A stretch of DNA of 63,058 nucleotides, filler included. It is 9 parts of 9 records of this genome, joined end to end, with 100 filler letters (N's around TTAATTAATTAA, not from the genome) between each part and the next. Parts side by side here need not be neighbours in the genome. Positions count along the whole stretch, not along the records: positions 12,875 to 18,816 come from SRR31147125_10729; 8 more parts are not named here. One strand, written 5' to 3'. Position numbers and translations under genes: made by a program. Shown in pieces: positions 14,125 through 21,071 of the stretch (its first letter is position 1; the number at the start of each line of letters is the position of its first letter). The notes beneath the pieces are model-generated. The model was not told where the DNA came from, made no database searches, and saw only the letters and a program-made list of their open reading frames with translations.

Positions 14125-14721
14125 ATGAAAAAAATACTAATTATCTTCGCCCACCCGGCCTACCACAAATCGCGCATAAACAAGGCGCTTATTGGTGCTA
14201 TTGAAAATATTGAAGGTGTTACTATTAATAATTTATACGAAAAATACCCCGATTTTTTTATCGATGTACCGGCAGAACAAAAGCTGCTGGTTGAGCACGA
14301 TATTATTATTTGGCATCATCCGTTTTACTGGTACAGCGCGCCGGCAATTATAAAAGAATGGATGGATTTGGTATTGCAACATGGTTTTGCATTTGGAAAA
14401 AATGGGAAAGCACTGGAGGGCAAGTGGGTCATGTCGGCTATTTCCACCGGGGGAAGCAAAGACGTTTATTCAGAATCGGGCAGCAATCAATTTACCATTA
14501 ACCAGTTTTTGGCGCCGTTTAACCAGGCTGCAAATTTGTGCAAAATGAGATACCTGCCTCCCTTTGTGGTGCATGGTTCGCACACGCTTTCGGATAACAA
14601 TTTGAATAAACACGCTGAAGATTACCGGAAATTAATACAGGCACTTCGCAATAAAACATTCGACACGAAAAAAGTAAAAAATACTGATTATATCAACTAT
14701 ATAATTCCTGAAAATGCATAA
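14125..14721 (+). CDS. kefG: KefF/KefG-like NAD(P)H oxidoreductase (flavodoxin-2 fold)
   Basis: IIFAHP, HPFYWYSAPAIIKEWMDLV; overlaps the kef antiporter start. Confidence 0.85.
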   Translation: MKKILIIFAHPAYHKSRINKALIGAIENIEGVTINNLYEKYPDFFIDVPAEQKLLVEHDIIIWHHPFYWYSAPAIIKEWMDLVLQHGFAFGKNGKALEGKWVMSAISTGGSKDVYSESGSNQFTINQFLAPFNQAANLCKMRYLPPFVVHGSHTLSDNNLNKHAEDYRKLIQALRNKTFDTKKVKNTDYINYIIPENA

Positions 14722-16609
14722 CCACGATTTCTTTTTAAGCGCTTTAATTTACCTCGGAGCTGCCGTTATTTCGGTTCCCATCGCTAAAAAGCTGGGACTT
14801 GGTTCGGTGCTGGGTTACCTGCTGGCCGGAATTATTATCGGGCCTTTTGTTTTTGGCTTGGTAGGTACCGAAGCGGGCGAAGTAATGCACTTTGCCGAGT
14901 TTGGTGTTGTGCTTATGCTTTTTATTATCGGACTTGAACTTGAACCGCATTTGCTATGGAAAATGCGGCGCTCTATTTTCGGGCTGGGAGGACTGCAAGT
15001 ATTAATAACAGCCGGAGTAATTACAGGCGTGGCTCTGGTTTTTAATTTCCAGGTGAACCGCGCCATTGCCATTGGTTTAATATTGGCTTTGTCGTCGACC
15101 GCGATTGTTCTGCAAACCTTATCGGAAAAAGGCTTAATGCGAAATACTGCCGGGCGCTCAGCGTTTTCGGTTCTACTCTTTCAAGATATGGCGGTAATTC
15201 CAATTCTGGCACTGCTTCCGTTAATTGCGACACTGGGAGCACCGGCCGACCTTTCTGAAACAGCTTTGGGAGACATTGACGGAGTAGCCCAAATGCCGGG
15301 TTGGTTACAACTACTTATTATTATAGGAGTAATTACTGCAATGGTTATTATCGGGCGTTTTGTTGCGCGCCATGTTTTCAGGTTGATTGCAGAAACCGGT
15401 TTGCACGAGGTATTTGTTGCACTGGCTTTATTAATGGTAATCGGCATTGCACTGGGAATGGATGCAATCGGGCTTTCTCCTGCGCTGGGTACTTTTATTG
15501 CCGGTGTGGTTTTGGCCGACAGTGAATATCGTCACGAACTGGAAACCACCATCGATCCATTTAAAGGATTACTACTCGGATTGTTCTTTATTTCGGTGGG
15601 TGCCAGTATTAATTTCCAATTACTTATTGAAAGTCCGGGACAAATTATAGCATTTGTTTTGCTGCTTATCCTTATAAAATTCAGTGTTCTGCTATTTTTA
15701 GGCAGAATGTTTAAGTTGAAAAAAGGCTACGAATTTCTGTTTGCTTTTTTACTTTCACAAGCCAGCGAATTTGCCTTTGTACTAATTTCCTTTTCGAAAC
15801 AAAACAAACTCTTCGATGAACAAACTGCCGGAATGATGTTATTGGTTGTTACACTATCGATGGCTATTTCTCCTCTACTTCTAATTTTTAATGATAAAGC
15901 GGTTAGCCCAATTTTGGCACGCTGGCAAAACAAACTGGAATACGATGAAATTGAAGACGAAGAAAATCCGGTAATACTTGCCGGTTTCGGGCGTTTTGGG
16001 TTGGCAATTGGGCGAATTTTGTTGGCGAATGGTTTTAAAGTCACAATTCTCGATAATAATCCGAGCAACGTTGAAACACTTCGTAAATATGGATTCAAAC
16101 TATATTTTGGCGATGTAACCCGGCCAACCTTGTTAGAAAAAGCAGGAATTAAAAATGCCCGTTTATTGATTTTAAGTATGGCCGAACACGACGAAGCATT
16201 GAAAGTTGCTAAATACGTTCGCGAAAAATATCCGAAAGTAAAAATACTTGCACGCGCCAAAGATCTTTTCCATGTATTCGAATATTTTGGAATTAACGTA
16301 AAAACCGCACAACGCGAAATGTTTGATTCTGCAACAGAATTAGGAACAAAAGCTTTGGAACATCTCGGCTTTACAAAATACGAAGCTTACCGGGCCACCC
16401 GAACTTTTAAACATCACGAAGAGCAGGTAATGGAAGAACTGTACCAACACTGGCTAGAAGACCATCACCAGTTTATTCAGGAAACACGTCGCTTTTCGGA
16501 GCAGGTTTTGGAAACTTTACAGACCGAAAAAGATTATTCTATTCATGAAACCGATTGTGCCTGGGATGTAGATTCGCGAAAGGATGAAGCGCGGGAGAAT
16601 TCGGACTAA
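14714..16609 (+). CDS. kefC: CPA2 K+/H+ antiporter KefB/KefC with KTN domain
   Basis: LGLGSVLGYLLAG, AEFGVVLMLF, LSSTAIV, FQD, GFGRFG, YFGDVTR. Confidence 0.92.
   Translation: MHNHDFFLSALIYLGAAVISVPIAKKLGLGSVLGYLLAGIIIGPFVFGLVGTEAGEVMHFAEFGVVLMLFIIGLELEPHLLWKMRRSIFGLGGLQVLITAGVITGVALVFNFQVNRAIAIGLILALSSTAIVLQTLSEKGLMRNTAGRSAFSVLLFQDMAVIPILALLPLIATLGAPADLSETALGDIDGVAQMPGWLQLLIIIGVITAMVIIGRFVARHVFRLIAETGLHEVFVALALLMVIGIALGMDAIGLSPALGTFIAGVVLADSEYRHELETTIDPFKGLLLGLFFISVGASINFQLLIESPGQIIAFVLLLILIKFSVLLFLGRMFKLKKGYEFLFAFLLSQASEFAFVLISFSKQNKLFDEQTAGMMLLVVTLSMAISPLLLIFNDKAVSPILARWQNKLEYDEIEDEENPVILAGFGRFGLAIGRILLANGFKVTILDNNPSNVETLRKYGFKLYFGDVTRPTLLEKAGIKNARLLILSMAEHDEALKVAKYVREKYPKVKILARAKDLFHVFEYFGINVKTAQREMFDSATELGTKALEHLGFTKYEAYRATRTFKHHEEQVMEELYQHWLEDHHQFIQETRRFSEQVLETLQTEKDYSIHETDCAWDVDSRKDEARENSD
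16440..16582 (+). repeat. Direct repeat copy 1 (kefC 3' end)
   Basis: 143-nt ungapped match to 17952-18094, about 26 mismatches by hand count. Confidence 0.9.
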
Positions 16610-16709
16610 TAAAACTCAAATTCAGTTTAAGTTGAATTTAATTGTTGTATTAATATTACATCCTTATATTTGGGTGAAAATAAAAAAGATATACATTTGG
16701 ACCCTCTAT

Positions 16710-17117
16710 ATGAGCAAAATTAGAGAAAAATCTGATTTTAATATTGACGCGGCAGAACGATTACTTAAAGATTCTCTTTACGCACCAAGTGTACACTGTT
16801 CTTATTATAGTTGTTTTCAATTATTAAAATTTACAATAAAAGATTTTTTTAATATTGATTATGATACTCAAGCTATAAATATTTCTCAGAGTGGACAAAA
16901 AACTCATCAATATGTTGTAAATTATGTCACAGACGAATTAAGACATCTGGCAAATATTAGAGATTCAAGAAACTTAAAAAGAACAATTAAGGACTTAAAG
17001 CAATTTCGAATTGAATCTGATTATGAAAATATCGAAATAGATTCAGGAAAAGGAAATAAAGCATTTTATAAAGCTACAGAAATTAGAAGTTACTTAATTA
17101 AAAACTTCAAGGTATGA
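16710..17117 (+). CDS. HEPN domain protein (UPF0332-like), putative RNase toxin
   Basis: AAERLL...SVHCSYYSCFQ, KTHQ and R-IES-DY motifs; likely start ATG 16710. Confidence 0.8.
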   Translation: MSKIREKSDFNIDAAERLLKDSLYAPSVHCSYYSCFQLLKFTIKDFFNIDYDTQAINISQSGQKTHQYVVNYVTDELRHLANIRDSRNLKRTIKDLKQFRIESDYENIEIDSGKGNKAFYKATEIRSYLIKNFKV

Positions 17118-17491
17118 AATCAAAAGAGTTTTTAATAGAAAAACTAAAAGACTTGTCTTCATTATTTGAAGATATTAAAATAAGGTACGAATACCGCAAA
17201 AATACAAATAGTCATATTATTGAGATTATCCCATTAGCTGAATTTAACAGCAATGAAGCATACATGTTGGCAGAAGCAGACCTGGAGGATAACTTTGAAA
17301 ATCTCTTCCCGCAAGAAGATATTGTATTTATCTCTGAAGACTCTCTAACTGAAATCAAAAATCCTATTTTACAATTAGGGTATGAACCAATTACATACAA
17401 TAATCCAGTCTCCTGTCCAGAGTTTATTGTTGAAGGATATTCTGATGAAGTTGATTCTGCAGGTTGTGAATTTTATGCATTAGCCGCTTAA
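17114..17491 (+). CDS. Small acidic protein with SsrA-like C-terminal tail, putative antitoxin
   Basis: ATGA overlap with the HEPN gene; ends AGCEFYALAA*. Confidence 0.7.
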   Translation: MKSKEFLIEKLKDLSSLFEDIKIRYEYRKNTNSHIIEIIPLAEFNSNEAYMLAEADLEDNFENLFPQEDIVFISEDSLTEIKNPILQLGYEPITYNNPVSCPEFIVEGYSDEVDSAGCEFYALAA

Positions 17492-17494
17492 AAT

Positions 17495-17904
17495 ATGAAA
17501 GATTCGATATTTCAATTCAAAGGTTTTACAATCATTCGCTCTTTAATTGAGAGAAATGAGAAAGAATCATCAAAAAAATTTCCTTGGGATTTTCGCCTAA
17601 GGGATTCATCAATAAGAATGATTCAAACTTTCAGTTACATCTTGGAGTTAAAATTGAAGATGAAAACAAATCATTCAATATTGAAATCGATGCTGTTGCA
17701 AATTACACTTTCAAAAATAAAGAAGGCCTCGACAGTCTCAACAAATATTTTTATATAAATGCTCCTGCATTATTATTCCCGTACATTCGTGCATACATAT
17801 CAACACTAACCAACCTGTCAGGTTTTGAGCCAATCAACCTTCCTACTTTAAACATGACAAAATTAGGAGAGGATTTACAAAAAAACACATCTGAAATATC
17901 ATAA
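17495..17904 (+). CDS. SecB-like chaperone (-1 frameshift at A7 17572-17578)
   Basis: NAPALLFPYIRAYISTLT...PINLPTLNM SecB-like signature; N-terminus in the 17495 frame. Confidence 0.85.
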
Positions 17905-17951
17905 AATTTTCTTTTTCGCTCAACCGTTCACTTACACCCATTCGAAAAAAT

Positions 17952-18094
17952 TGTACCAGCACTGGCTAGAAGACCACCACCAGTTTATACAGAAAACGCG
18001 CCGTTTCTGTGATCAAATTTTATAAAAATTACAGGCTGAAAAAGATTATTCAATTCATGAGATGGATTGTGCCTGGGATGTAGATTCAAGAAAA
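17952..18094 (+). pseudogene. Degenerate second copy of the kefC 3' end
   Basis: Translates YQHWLEDHHQFIQKTRRFCDQIL*KLQAEKDYSIHEMDCAWDVDSRK versus kefC YQHWLEDHHQFIQETRRFSEQVLETLQTEKDYSIHETDCAWDVDSRK. Confidence 0.88.
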
Positions 18095-18399
18095 AAACAA
18101 ACTTAATCTGAACGATTTCTTACTTTGCTGTTTTTGTCAACATTTCAGTCTTCATTATTACAATTTTCTCATCATTCTTTATTGAAATAACAAAAAGCTA
18201 CTATTTCAACACTCTATCTAAAACTTTGAATACGGCTCCTTTTTCAATAAACTAAATTAGCCCTTTCGAACCAAAAATTGAAATCTTCAATAAACTAAAT
18301 TAGACCATTTCTAAATAGACCAGATTTCACATTTTTTGGATTTTTGTCATTTGGAGATTCAAAGAATTATATAGTTTTGCAATCTCTAAATAGCAAAAA

Positions 18400-18816: not shown

Positions 18817-18916
18817 NNNNNNNNNNNNNNNNNNNNNNNNNNNNNNNNNNNNNNNNNNNNTTAATTAATTAANNNNNNNNNNNNNNNNNNNNNNNNNNNN
18901 NNNNNNNNNNNNNNNN
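18817..18916. other. Artificial contig linker
   Basis: N-run + TTAATTAATTAA + N-run. Confidence 0.98.
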
Positions 18917-19906
18917 TCCGTTTGTACCTTCACTTACAAAAACTTTAATGCGTTCTACATTCTCTTTATTAGTAATCTTCCCCGGATATTTTTCTAAATA
19001 ATACGCCAACCGTTTTTCGGAATGTTTATTACTGAAAAAGCCCACATTATCAAATTTATCCATGTGAGCAAAAAAGGCATCTTCAAGCACATTCGGAAAA
19101 GATGCTCCTCCAATTGCTCTGTTTTCAGCTCCTTTACGAACTCTGTAGTTTTCTTCAACAAAAGGGATAATATCCTTTACCAACGATTCTGCAAAAAGGT
19201 TGCTGTTATTCTGCCTGTTATTATAATCTACTTTTCCATTTACCTGTGTCCAAATAGTTGGCATTACAACAATCATTGGTTTTGCTTTGCCACTGGCAAT
19301 CAGGTTATCCATAAGAATATGAGCTTTCCCCATTGTAACCCAGGAATCTACTCCGGCTCTTCCTTCGTGGGTCAGATAAAACACCTCATAATCATCCGCA
19401 TTTGAATCATAGCCCGGAGGTAAATAAACATACATTTGTTTCTCCGAATTAACTACTGAAGCTTTGTAATAAACTAGACGAAGGTCGCCGTGCGGAACAT
19501 TTTGCTCCATCATAAAATCGGTTTCCGCTCCGGGTACCAGAAACATATTTTCAACAACATTCCCGGTTCTTACCCAACCATTATCCTGGTCAAGAATGCG
19601 AATATTATCAACCATAAAACTATAAGAATAGATATCGGGAGTTAATGAGCCAAGAGTAAGTAACCACATTCCCTGCGCATCTTTTTTCATTGGCTCGGCA
19701 TGATGATTTATTGTAAAACAATCGCCTGCCAATGAAACTTCTTTTGCATTTGGAGCTAAAAACCTGAAAGTAACAGAATTATCGTCATGTATTTCAGGAG
19801 AGTTTATTGATTTTTTTTGCTGTCCAATTACAAATCCGAACACAAATATTATTAAAAAACCCGTTAAAATAAATCTTGAAAAAATTGAAAAATATATGGT
19901 TTTCAT
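18917..19906 (-). CDS. CBM48/E-set + alpha/beta-hydrolase esterase (CE1-like), truncated
   Basis: SPEIHDDNSVTFRFLAPNA, VPHG, YLPPGYD, IMDNLIA-type motif, PMIVVMP. Confidence 0.85.
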
Positions 19907-19937: not shown

Positions 19938-21071
19938 TTATTTAAATACCTGCGTAACAAATTCGGCAAAGTAACGTCTGAAATAAGGCCATCCGTGTAT
20001 TCCTTCCACTTCATGAAAAGTAGTTTTATAACCCATTTCATTTAAAGTACTTGTAAAATATTTAGCTCCTTCGTAAGCCGGCGCACTTTTACCTTCGCCT
20101 GCCCAAACTTTAATACGATTTACATTCTTAGGATCTGCAATTTTCCCGGGATACTTTTCCATATAATGTGCAAAACGTTCTTCGGAATGTTTGTTACTGA
20201 AAAAGCCAACATAATCGAATTTATCCATGTGTTCAAAAAAGGTATCTTCAAGCATGTTTGGATAAGAAATTCCTCCAATTGCACTGTTTTCGCTTCCTGT
20301 TAAAACTTTGTAATTCTGTTCAATAAACGGAATAATATCGGTTGCCAGCATTTCTGCAAAAAGTTTACTATTATCCTGTCTGCGATCGCTTGGAAGCGGT
20401 AAATCGATTGCCCAAACCGAAGGCATTACAATAACCATTGGTTTTACTTTACCTTCTGCAATTAAATTATCCATAATTAAATGAATTTGCCCCACAGAAA
20501 TCCAACAATCGTCGTGATCGCCACCTGCATGAAAATTATAAAATACCGGATATTTATCATCACTGGAATCATATCCGGGAGGATAATAAATATGCATACG
20601 TTTGGTTTTATTTATTACTGAAGATTGATAATGAATAATCCCAACTTGTCCGTGAGGAACCTCTTTTTCCATTAAAAAATCAGCTTCTTCGCCCGGAACT
20701 AGAAACATATTTTCGGTTACCCGAACTCCTGGTTTAATCCAGCCATTATCCTGGTCGAGTACTCTTAAGCCATCAACTATAAAACTATAAGAATAAATAT
20801 CGGGAGTTAAAGGTTCCACAGTTAACGACCACATTCCCTGGTCATCTTTATGCATTTCTTTATTATCTTCTTCTGTCTTCCAAAAATCTCCCGACATAGT
20901 AATTTTATTCGCATCGGGAGCTAAAAATCGAAAAGTTATTGAATTATCTGCATGTATTTCAGGTGAATTTATTGATTCTTTTGGCTGACCATTCACCGAT
21001 ATATATAAACTGAAAAAGAGAAAAATCAGGATTATCGGAGTTTTAAAAGAAGTAGAATAAATTGATTTCAT
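19938..21071 (-). CDS. CBM48/E-set + alpha/beta-hydrolase esterase (CE1-like) paralog
   Basis: Same architecture; C-terminal GIHGWPYFR catalytic-His region. Confidence 0.85.
   Translation of the reverse strand: MKSIYSTSFKTPIILIFLFFSLYISVNGQPKESINSPEIHADNSITFRFLAPDANKITMSGDFWKTEEDNKEMHKDDQGMWSLTVEPLTPDIYSYSFIVDGLRVLDQDNGWIKPGVRVTENMFLVPGEEADFLMEKEVPHGQVGIIHYQSSVINKTKRMHIYYPPGYDSSDDKYPVFYNFHAGGDHDDCWISVGQIHLIMDNLIAEGKVKPMVIVMPSVWAIDLPLPSDRRQDNSKLFAEMLATDIIPFIEQNYKVLTGSENSAIGGISYPNMLEDTFFEHMDKFDYVGFFSNKHSEERFAHYMEKYPGKIADPKNVNRIKVWAGEGKSAPAYEGAKYFTSTLNEMGYKTTFHEVEGIHGWPYFRRYFAEFVTQVFK

Follow-up and report, generated by a model that had tools for sequence, protein, structure and literature searches.

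The question raised by this locus is why a gene for a small protein should itself encode, at its extreme 3' end, a peptide that reproduces the closing residues of the tmRNA (SsrA) tag. The window (the whole stretch of DNA analysed, 63,058 nucleotides from nine records of one genome joined end to end, filler included) contains an open reading frame (ORF) of 125 amino acids whose product has the C-terminus DEVDSAGCEFYALAA, followed by a TAA stop codon at 17489-17491 (Table 1). The last ten residues, AGCEFYALAA, are the exact translation of positions 17459-17488, as the original prediction had claimed for the middle gene of this cassette. Since a conserved protein-coding ORF runs in frame through this peptide to its stop codon, it is a mimic rather than a product of trans-translation, and a scan of the 63-kb window for tRNA and tmRNA genes found none. 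The reading favoured here, and considered likely, is that the tail is a degron copied on the tag of the host, carried by the antitoxin of a HEPN-type toxin-antitoxin-chaperone (TAC) system and shielded by a chaperone of the CmdC type.

Table 1. Features of the locus, with coordinates given as positions in the window.
Feature	Coordinates	Strand	Basis or context
Kef-type cation/proton antiporter gene	14714..16609	+	Pfam Na_H_Exchanger 2.4e-57, TrkA_N 1.4e-21
Putative toxin gene, 135-aa HEPN-fold protein	16710..17117	+	Pfam HEPN PF05168, structure model
Putative antitoxin gene, 125 aa	17114..17491	+	Between HEPN-like and SecB-like genes
Candidate ChAD-like chaperone-binding segment EFIVEGYSDEV, residues 103-113	17420..17452	+	Alignment, disorder in model
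Antitoxin tail AGCEFYALAA with TAA stop	17459..17491	+	Putative ClpX degron; genome-encoded copy of tmRNA (SsrA) tag end
SecB-like, CmdC-type chaperone gene	17495..17904	+	Split: ORFs 17495..17758 and 17584..17904
Degenerate second copy of the kef-like gene's 3' end	17950..18095	+	Compare 16440-16590

The antitoxin gene occupies the middle of a row of three genes in the order HEPN protein, antitoxin, SecB-like chaperone; the stop codon of the first overlaps the start codon of the second (ATGA), and 3 nt separate the second from the third. Among 24 distinct genomic loci, the ORF downstream of the antitoxin scores above the Pfam SecB cut-off in all 24, and the upstream ORF matches HEPN at E<0.01 in 15 of the 19 loci where one was called (10 of them above the cut-off). 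The cassette is a TAC system. A contig search with the single antitoxin protein returned one locus (L001), and a profile search recovered the family from 3 of 401 genomes in a phylum-wide sample and 21 of 401 in an order-wide sample. In all, 84 antitoxin homologues were found, and the search with the family profile (E<=1e-3) returned 1560 clusters at 50% identity.

The first gene, whose start was placed from homologues (MSKIR.KSDFN...), encodes a protein that matches Pfam HEPN with an E-value of 1.7e-6 (28.6 bits; cut-off 22), and its AlphaFold model consists of six helices with a pLDDT of 96.4. The top rows of a Foldseek search with this model are HEPN proteins (e.g., 2hsb, TM 0.73/0.78, E 1.4e-2), and the family profile matches the HEPN entry 9xbd_A in the PDB (E 5.3e-7). 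Residues K7, S8, N11, L18, H29, Y32, R100, D104, and Y105 are invariant and H66 is nearly so. The canonical Rx4-6H motif was not found in this protein, as no histidine stands 5-7 residues past the arginine in any of 18 aligned sequences; the motif present is R100-x3-D104-Y105 (R-x3-D-Y), with H29 and H66 located elsewhere. Because R-x3-D-Y stands where canonical HEPN RNases have Rx4-6H, the toxic activity of the protein is only putative. PADLOC returned no match for it, including none to PD-T4-9_A.

The structure model of the antitoxin predicts a folded N-terminal domain that reaches to about residue 90, after which the chain (residues 92-125) continues as a disordered C-terminal extension: residues 1-90 form an alpha/beta fold with pLDDT values of 72-87, and residues 91-125 have values of 44-54 and no secondary structure. 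The unstructured C-terminal extension typical of TAC antitoxins is thus present in the model, and in the alignment its length and sequence vary except for an aromatic patch and the extreme end. The patch, EFIVEGYSDEV, lies inside the disordered tail with a semi-conserved aromatic and hydrophobic pattern (E-F/L-x-V-x-G-F/Y), and by analogy with the aromatic ChAD patterns given in the available text of a published study (bioRxiv 10.1101/2024.02.24.581848) it is a candidate ChAD. The whole protein matched no family in Pfam, NCBIfam, or PADLOC, and its N-terminal domain gave no row at E<=1e-3 in a Foldseek search against the PDB. In a wide VIA-align search KhpB scored highest (Z 8.7), and the MNT proteins 8xeh_E and 1no5_B (both Z 6.2) and 1ylq_B (Z 6.0) stood beside numerous unrelated structures with comparable Z; these matches are non-specific, and the domain is not assigned to a fold family.

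The third gene bears out the predicted SecB-like chaperone: its C-terminal part matches Pfam SecB PF02556 (E 2.6e-10) and the PADLOC profile PDLC04072, PD-T4-9_C or CmdC (99.1 bits, E 5.5e-29), and the family profile matches the SecB structures 1fx3 (9e-8) and Rv1957 (5mtw_C, 2e-4). The gene in the window is broken by a shift of 1 nt at a run of seven adenines (17572-17578). This raises the alternative that the cassette in this genome is a decaying remnant, in which a real frameshift in the chaperone has left the system inactive or rewired, a reading that would be in keeping with the disruption of the 5' part of the chaperone gene at two of 24 other loci (L013 and L016) and with the origin of the cassette as an insertion. 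The cassette lies directly 3' of the kef-like gene and is followed by a degenerate second copy of that gene's 3' end, which marks the right border of an inserted segment of 1.3 kb; in a pairwise alignment the two copies share long identical runs, with a mean column identity of 80% across the whole aligned stretch, and one contig piece matched both. The orthologous chaperone at L001 is intact at 136 amino acids (PD-T4-9_C, E 1.1e-30) and reads ASKKISLVFSPKG across the site of the frameshift. The remnant reading is considered unlikely. A contig from the public run X1 carries an extra A behind 17571 that restores the frame, although this is a single contig at a depth of 4.6 from a run that may be the window's own sample. 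The HEPN and antitoxin ORFs are intact, and under the TAC model a toxin set free by loss of its chaperone should be selected against. Programmed -1 frameshifting at the A-run was also considered and is not favoured, given the single frame with an interrupted A-run at L001 and the extra A in the X1 contig. A scan for promoters and terminators gave nothing above shuffle expectation.

With the cassette defined, the rarity and conservation of the tail can be assessed. A scan for YALAA followed by a stop codon, using the degenerate nucleotide pattern TAYGCNYTNGCNGCNTRR, found a single site in the window (17474-17491) and none in any of 100 shuffled versions of it (mean 0.00). In the 7.6-Mb genome G001, which carries an orthologous cassette, only two such sites occur on both strands together, one within the tmRNA gene and the other where the antitoxin gene ends, and the reversed pattern, used as a control, had no match in the same genome. 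Short C-terminal motifs can arise by chance, and an end of this kind could in principle be a coincidence or an annotation artefact without function; nothing further speaks for this explanation, which is refuted by conservation and deserves practically no credence. A check of whether homologues lack the LAA end was run, and the close homologues retain it almost without exception: all 84 end in AA, 83 in LAA (the other in IAA), and 77 in YALAA, despite identities of 39-75% and a variable tail before the YALAA end. Synonymous variation among loci occurs at all five YALAA codons, which indicates that selection acts on the peptide. Among the 24 distinct genomic loci, 22 antitoxins end in AA, 17 in LAA, and 8 in YALAA, the two without AA ending in EEILC (L023) and YAKAS (L012); among the 150 best representatives of the 50%-identity clusters, the corresponding numbers are 107, 86, and 54. 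Of the 43 representatives in which the AA end is absent, 17 fall below 110 aa in length and could be incomplete, and the other 26 are unexplained.

The resemblance of the tails to the tmRNA tag extends beyond these terminal residues. The tag predicted in G001 is GENNYALAA, and the tags predicted in 24 further host genomes are similar (GENNYALAA, GETNYALAA, and others), in agreement with the form GE(T/N)NYALAA that the original prediction had given for Bacteroidetes. The tails of the relatives fit the tag of their own host better than those of other hosts. Over 26 tail and tag pairs from 25 genomes of relatives, compared with shuffled pairings that ignore the kinship of the genomes, identities at the last nine positions number 139 versus 119.6 (reached in 0 of 20,000 shuffles), those at positions -6 to -9 number 42 versus 26.9 (reached in 1 of 20,000), and with non-consensus tags only the count is 23 versus 11.2 (0 of 20,000). 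At two loci (L019 and L028) all nine tail residues equal the host tag GENNYALAA, and in genome G600 the tail DESYDYTLAA faces the tag DESYDYALAA. The G600 peptides are nearly the same with just 20 of 33 nt in common (e.g., a serine encoded by AGT in one and TCT in the other), and therefore the tail is not a DNA copy of the tag. Capture of DNA from the tmRNA gene was considered more generally and rejected, as the identity between tails and tags is 18-26 of 30 nt and most synonymous sites differ in the G600 pair.

A second toxin-antitoxin family in the same order presents a similar picture. Of 11 short ORFs that immediately precede other SecB-like genes, 10 have a terminal AA and 5 a terminal LAA, with one ending in LAGENNYALAA, and the toxin ORF upstream is CmdT-like (PADLOC PD-T4-9_A) in all 10 loci tested. 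Outside the order, a TAC antitoxin of a Vibrio phage ends in GFAA and one of a Lactiplantibacillus plasmid in GDVA, neither with a tag copy, although two cases are anecdotal.

The length of the matched tail bears on which protease would read it. In E. coli, LAA alone suffices for ClpX, and ClpAP, Lon, and FtsH also act on SsrA-tagged proteins. A tail that tracks the host's own tag as far as positions -6 to -9 within this order, together with the short ends GFAA and GDVA outside it, could thus point to a reader other than ClpXP, either an adaptor specific for the tag or a protease of the ClpAP, Lon, or FtsH type, that recognises more than LAA and so accounts for the long, host-matched tail. Against such a reader, which we regard as quite unlikely, stands the presence of clpX above the cut-off in all five host genomes tested, adjoined in each by a clpP-like gene (E 1e-75 to 1.9e-85, below the equivalog cut-off), and the experiments on related systems, so far as described in the available text of the reports, point to ClpXP.

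Those related systems also provide the frame in which the tail is interpreted. In the available portions of the published reports, the antitoxin CmdA of E. coli ends in LAA and is unstable in a ClpP-dependent manner, an instability abolished by changing AA to DD, and the T4 capsid protein and lambda gpV titrate TAC chaperones (bioRxiv 10.1101/2024.02.24.581848; PMC11618068); the terminal Ala-Ala is described as key for recognition by ClpX (bioRxiv 10.1101/2024.02.24.581848). The same sources, as far as available, indicate that a degron ending in alanine is not universal in TAC systems, since HigA of E. coli NT1F31 ends in Leu-Pro (bioRxiv 10.1101/2024.02.24.581848; PMC8165232; PMC11618068). 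For Mycobacterium tuberculosis HigA1, the accessible text reports a C-terminal Val-Ala degron for ClpX, located within the ChAD region and protected by SecB-TA, the SecB-like chaperone, with the chaperone site and the degron made up of different residues (PMC8165232). This last distinction weighs against the further alternative that the YALAA end is mainly a determinant of chaperone binding, or an element of solubility or aggregation, with its likeness to the tag being secondary. An aromatic residue does occupy position -5 in 91 of the 107 AA-ended cluster representatives, as such a role might predict. However, chaperone binding alone would leave the tracking of the host tmRNA tag unexplained, and the most conserved feature in two unrelated antitoxin families is AA-COOH, the determinant of ClpX; the alternative is considered very unlikely.

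Under the favoured reading, a host-tag-copying degron under chaperone protection, the N-terminal domain of the antitoxin would bind and neutralise the HEPN protein, and the internal aromatic and hydrophobic patch of the tail would be held by the chaperone tetramer. The terminal (N)YALAA-COOH would be a built-in degradation signal for whichever protease removes SsrA-tagged proteins; to judge from the homologous systems, this is most likely ClpXP. With the chaperone on the tail, the antitoxin would be stable; with the chaperone occupied by another client (e.g., a structural protein of a phage), the tail would become exposed, and degradation of the antitoxin would free the HEPN toxin, leading to aborted infection or growth arrest. 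Binding, shielding, ClpXP dependence, and HEPN toxicity are all features that we infer. The analogy supports the earlier suggestion of a chaperone-shielded ClpXP degron that a phage protein would lay bare by titrating the chaperone, a mechanism that is not new, having already been published for HigA1 and CmdA.

What appears to be new is the presence of a HEPN-type toxin-antitoxin pair in a TAC system, together with a long copy of the tag matched to the host. The literature search found no paper describing a HEPN toxin with a SecB-like chaperone, and the only TAC toxin-antitoxin pairs found described were HigBA, HicAB, MqsRA, and CmdTA. The cassettes represent a large unnamed TAC family, with a HEPN toxin that lacks the canonical RNase motif and an antitoxin domain that belongs to no known family. 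Tails that track the host tag over about nine residues amount to a natural mutational scan of the machinery for SsrA recognition in Bacteroidales, and their match to the host hints that more than LAA is recognised. For annotation, the single genome checked (G001) suggests a simple rule, namely that YALAA followed by a stop marks either the tmRNA gene or a TAC antitoxin.

A bolder generalisation, which is rather doubtful, is that the tails of TAC antitoxins in this order are full-length copies of the tmRNA tag of each host, kept by selection at the level of the peptide in at least two unrelated antitoxin families. If so, the machinery that clears SsrA-tagged proteins would read nine residues or more, whether by way of some adaptor or because the protease itself makes extended contacts, and the antitoxin would compete directly with genuine tmRNA-tagged proteins. 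The firing of TAC systems would then be coupled to the load of trans-translation, and cleavage of mRNA, for instance by the freed toxin or during phage attack, would load ClpXP with so many tagged substrates that further antitoxin would be lost more slowly, forming a built-in feedback loop. The tails would also act as a natural reporter of which residues of the tag matter.

Of the known systems, CmdTAC (PD-T4-9; the ADP-ribosyltransferase CmdT with CmdA and CmdC) shares with the HEPN cassette its gene order, the PD-T4-9_C chaperone family, and a small antitoxin whose unstructured C-terminal region closes with LAA; the same bacterial order also contains cassettes of the CmdT type in which the antitoxin ends in AA. 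According to the available text of the report, CmdA is degraded in a ClpP-dependent manner once the phage capsid protein titrates the chaperone (PMC11618068). The HEPN cassette differs from CmdTAC in that its first gene encodes a HEPN-fold protein without a PD-T4-9_A match, the N-terminal alpha/beta domain of its antitoxin is unrelated to that of CmdA, and the tails of its family, as seen in relatives, match the host tag over six to nine or more residues where CmdA has just LAA.

The HigB1-HigA1-SecB(TA) system (Rv1955-Rv1957) resembles the HEPN cassette in the ChAD-like extension at the C-terminus of the antitoxin, with HigA1 being addicted to its chaperone and the HEPN-cassette antitoxin possibly so by analogy, and in the ClpX-type degron (putative in the HEPN cassette) at the extreme C-terminus, which in HigA1 lies inside the chaperone-bound region in the available account (PMC8165232). 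It differs in having a RelE-like toxin, a helix-turn-helix antitoxin, and a Val-Ala degron that is no copy of the tag, and its chaperone is just distantly related to that of the HEPN cassette (the Rv1957 profile match noted above). HEPN-MNT (type VII) systems likewise place a small HEPN-fold protein beside a small alpha/beta protein, and the middle protein bears a weak, non-specific resemblance in fold to MNT antitoxins (Z 6.0-6.2). Unlike those pairs, the HEPN protein here is without Rx4-6H, the middle protein is without a nucleotidyltransferase family match or motif, and the cassette possesses a third gene for a chaperone and a degron-like tail, both absent from HEPN-MNT. Finally, the terminal peptide YALAA-COOH is shared with the SsrA tag itself and with natural ssrA-like ClpX degrons; here, by contrast with the SsrA tag, the peptide is encoded in the gene, and a dedicated chaperone is proposed to control when it becomes exposed.

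The 125-aa putative antitoxin encoded by gene 2 of the cassette terminates in the SsrA-like peptide AGCEFYALAA that the original prediction had noticed, and this ending was confirmed. A degenerate DNA pattern for YALAA followed by a stop has a single match in the 63-kb window, and a match was obtained in 0/100 shuffles. When both strands of G001 (a 7.6-Mb genome carrying an orthologous cassette) were searched with the same pattern, two matches were found, the tmRNA gene (tag GENNYALAA) and the antitoxin gene, and the reversed-pattern control gave 0. The YALAA-stop ending of gene 2 is thus both real and rare.

Coordinates of the cassette and of other features in the window
Feature	Position	Strand	Details
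Kef-type gene, last ~150 bases, upstream copy	16440-16590		
TATATTTG	16665-16672		~38 nt 5' of the HEPN start codon
Gene 1, HEPN-fold protein, 135 aa	16710-17117	+	Pfam PF05168, E 1.7e-6
Gene 2, putative antitoxin, 125 aa	17114-17491	+	C-terminus ...DEVDSAGCEFYALAA, then TAA
SsrA-like end	17459-17491	+	Exactly the final ten gene 2 codons and the stop
YALAA-stop match	17474-17491		
Gene 3, SecB-like	17495-17904	+	PF02556, E 2.6e-10
A7 run in gene 3	17572-17578		Site of 1-nt shift
Kef-type gene, last ~150 bases, downstream copy	17950-18095		Decayed
Masked N stretch	~18820-18870		
CBM48 and 'putative esterase' (PF00756) gene, first	18869-19906	-	3' end enters the masked N stretch
CBM48 and 'putative esterase' (PF00756) gene, second	19938-21071	-	Tandem paralog of the first

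The cassette is an operon of three closely packed genes, with the stop of gene 1 overlapping the start of gene 2 (ATGA). The octamer TATATTTG upstream of gene 1 fits TAnnTTTG, the Bacteroidetes -7 promoter consensus. The AlphaFold model of the gene 1 protein consists of six helices (pLDDT 96.4), and its top structural matches are HEPN proteins (e.g., 2hsb, TM 0.73/0.78, with a Foldseek E of just 1.4e-2). Alignment of the gene 1 family (A2) reveals invariant residues K7, S8, N11, H29, Y32, R100, D104, and Y105, as well as a near-invariant H66. HEPN RNases usually carry the motif Rx4-6H, whereas this family has R-x3-D-Y (R100-x3-D104-Y105), with H29 and H66 located elsewhere in the sequence; the putative toxin may use another arrangement of its active site or act other than as an RNase. 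Gene 2 has no family match in Pfam, NCBIfam, or PADLOC, and its model comprises an alpha/beta domain (residues 1 to ~90, pLDDT 72-87) followed by a disordered tail (residues 91-125, pLDDT 44-54). Fold matches to the domain are non-specific, with MNT antitoxins (Z 6.0-6.2) appearing amid many unrelated rows. Gene 3 is of the CmdC type (PADLOC PD-T4-9_C, E 5.5e-29), and a profile of its relatives matches SecB structures and the Mycobacterium tuberculosis toxin-antitoxin-chaperone (TAC) chaperone Rv1957.

In the window, gene 3 is divided over two frames by the shift at the A7 run, while at locus L001 the intact 136-aa orthologue has ...ASKKISLVFSPKG spanning the shift site. A single 275-nt contig of depth 4.6, from the public sequencing run X1, which is possibly the window's own sample, has A8 at this position; since the extra A restores the frame, the shift is probably a homopolymer error. 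The 5' part of the chaperone gene is also disrupted in two related loci (a shift at a short A-run in L013 and a stop at codon 4 in L016).

The 1.3-kb cassette lies directly 3' of a Kef-type antiporter gene, the end of which occurs twice, flanking the cassette, and the neighbors of the orthologous L001 cassette differ from those in the window. These flanks mark the cassette as a mobile insertion at the Kef-type gene, whose 3' end was either replaced or duplicated; no integrase was found inside the 1.3-kb insert. Elsewhere in the window, on the - strand, are the tandem CBM48 genes.

The LAA end of the proposed degron is conserved in the homologues. A word-indexed search recovered 84 gene 2 homologues (39-75% identity), all of which end in AA (LAA in 83, IAA in 1; YALAA in 77), and in an alignment the N-terminal domain is conserved and is followed by a linker that varies, a patch of semi-conserved aromatic/hydrophobic residues (E-F/L-x-V-x-G-F/Y), and a near-invariant Y121 A122 L123 A124 A125. 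Searching 1.84 billion cluster representatives with a profile gave 1560 proteins at E<=1e-3 (942 at <=1e-10); among the best 150 of these, 107 end in AA (LAA 86, YALAA 54), and of the 43 lacking this end, 17 have fewer than 110 residues and are possible fragments, whereas the other 26 are not explained in this way. Profile searches placed the family in 3/401 sampled genomes of the phylum and 21/401 of the order of G001. At 24 distinct loci (L010 duplicates L001 and was omitted; L033 is a stop-containing 51-aa fragment and yielded no ORF match), 22 proteins end in AA (LAA 17, YALAA 8), the exceptions being L023 (...EEILC) and L012 (...YAKAS). Synonymous variation among loci was observed at all five YALAA codons, indicating that the constraint acts on the peptide. 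A SecB-like gene above the Pfam cut-off is directly downstream at 24/24 loci, and of the 19 loci with a called upstream ORF, 15 give a HEPN match for it at E<0.01 (10 above the cut-off). Five family members (L011, L012, L029, L030, and L031) are longer, at 174-217 aa, with a long variable insert separating the conserved N-terminal domain from the C-terminal end, which is AA in all except L012.

SecB-like genes are present in 40/401 genomes of the order of G001, and 13 of the 30 SecB-like loci listed lack a member of the window antitoxin family. Eleven of the 13 have a short unrelated ORF immediately 5' of the chaperone gene (L059 has no called short ORF, and L037 has a different architecture). 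Ten of the 11 ORFs end in AA, five in LAA, and one in LAGENNYALAA, with L058 (...LFYI) as the exception; the first gene is CmdT-like (PADLOC PD-T4-9_A) in 10/10 such cassettes tested. The same ending thus occurs on two antitoxin families, so the tag-like tail goes with the chaperone module and not with one antitoxin fold. Two TAC antitoxins from outside the order end in GFAA and GDVA and carry no tag copy. SecB-like relatives of the window chaperone (34-36% identity) also occur on small plasmids of beer and cheese lactic acid bacteria. In the one examined, L097 on Lactiplantibacillus plantarum plasmid NZ_CP023495.1, the SecB-like gene is preceded by an HTH antitoxin-like gene, the one ending ...GDVA, and adjoins a MazF/PrlF pair.

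Antitoxin tails co-vary with the SsrA tags of their hosts. Among 31 genomes searched, 26 tmRNA loci were submitted to ARAGORN, which gave tags for 24 host genomes beyond G001, mostly G(E/N/D)NN(Y/F)ALAA-like, with some unusual. In 26 pairs from 25 genomes (eight tails without a recovered host tag were excluded), tails are closer to their own host's tag than to shuffled hosts' tags, in a test that ignores the kinship of the genomes.

Identities between antitoxin tails and own-host tags, compared with 20,000 shuffles of hosts (kinship of genomes ignored)
Pairs	Positions	Observed	Shuffled mean	Shuffles reaching observed (kinship ignored)
All	Last 9	139	119.6	0/20,000
All	-6 to -9	42	26.9	1/20,000
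Non-consensus tags only	-6 to -9	23	11.2	0/20,000
HEPN-type only	Last 9	108	96.8	26/20,000
CmdT-type only	Last 9	31	23.2	145/20,000

The clearest single case of tag mimicry at the level of the peptide is genome G600, where the CmdT-type antitoxin (L045) ends in DESYDYTLAA and the unusual host tag is DESYDYALAA (tmRNA locus L079), a match at 9/10 residues. Tail and tag are identical at 9/9 residues in G626 and G529, and near-identical in G721 (GENNFALAA and GDNNFALAA) and G722 (GENDFALAA and GENNFALAA). Such likeness does not stem from recent copying of the tmRNA gene, as the singled-out pairs have just 18-26/30 nt in common (20/33 in G600) and the serine codons in G600 differ (AGT in the tail, TCT in the tag).

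The cassette is probably a TAC system working by a chaperone-gated degron tail. The N-terminal domain of gene 2 would neutralize the HEPN protein, and a chaperone tetramer would hold the disordered tail. Once a client, for instance a phage structural protein, titrated the chaperone away, the (N)YALAA-COOH end would be exposed to the protease that clears SsrA-tagged proteins in the host, most likely ClpXP, leading to loss of the antitoxin and release of the putative toxin. All five host genomes tested contain clpX above the curated cut-off, with an adjoining clpP-like gene that does not reach the equivalog cut-off (E 1e-75 to 1.9e-85).

The interpretation in the original prediction, a chaperone-shielded ClpXP degron freed when the chaperone is titrated, for example by a phage protein, is supported, and the mechanism is already known, being that of the published TAC model. 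In TACs as described by Bordes et al. (2016, PMC5105189), a HigBA, HicAB, or MqsRA pair is joined by a SecB-like chaperone, and the antitoxin bears a C-terminal chaperone-addiction segment (ChAD) that is transferable. M. tuberculosis HigA1 has a C-terminal Val-Ala ClpX degron within the same ChAD region bound by SecB-TA (2021 review PMC8165232, summarizing Texier et al. 2021). In E. coli CmdTAC, binding of CmdC by the T4 capsid protein leads to ClpP-dependent loss of CmdA (Vassallo et al., PMC11618068). Mets et al. (bioRxiv 10.1101/2024.02.24.581848) report that an AA-to-DD change in CmdA abolishes CmdTA toxicity, that lambda gpV and the ChAD compete for HigC, and that one HigA with a Leu-Pro end is ClpXP-independent. 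Searches of open-access papers and preprints found no description of a HEPN toxin paired with a SecB-like chaperone, or of TAC antitoxins that copy the entire tmRNA tag specific to their host. Relative to the known TACs, the elements that appear new are the HEPN-type family and the long, host-matched tag copy.
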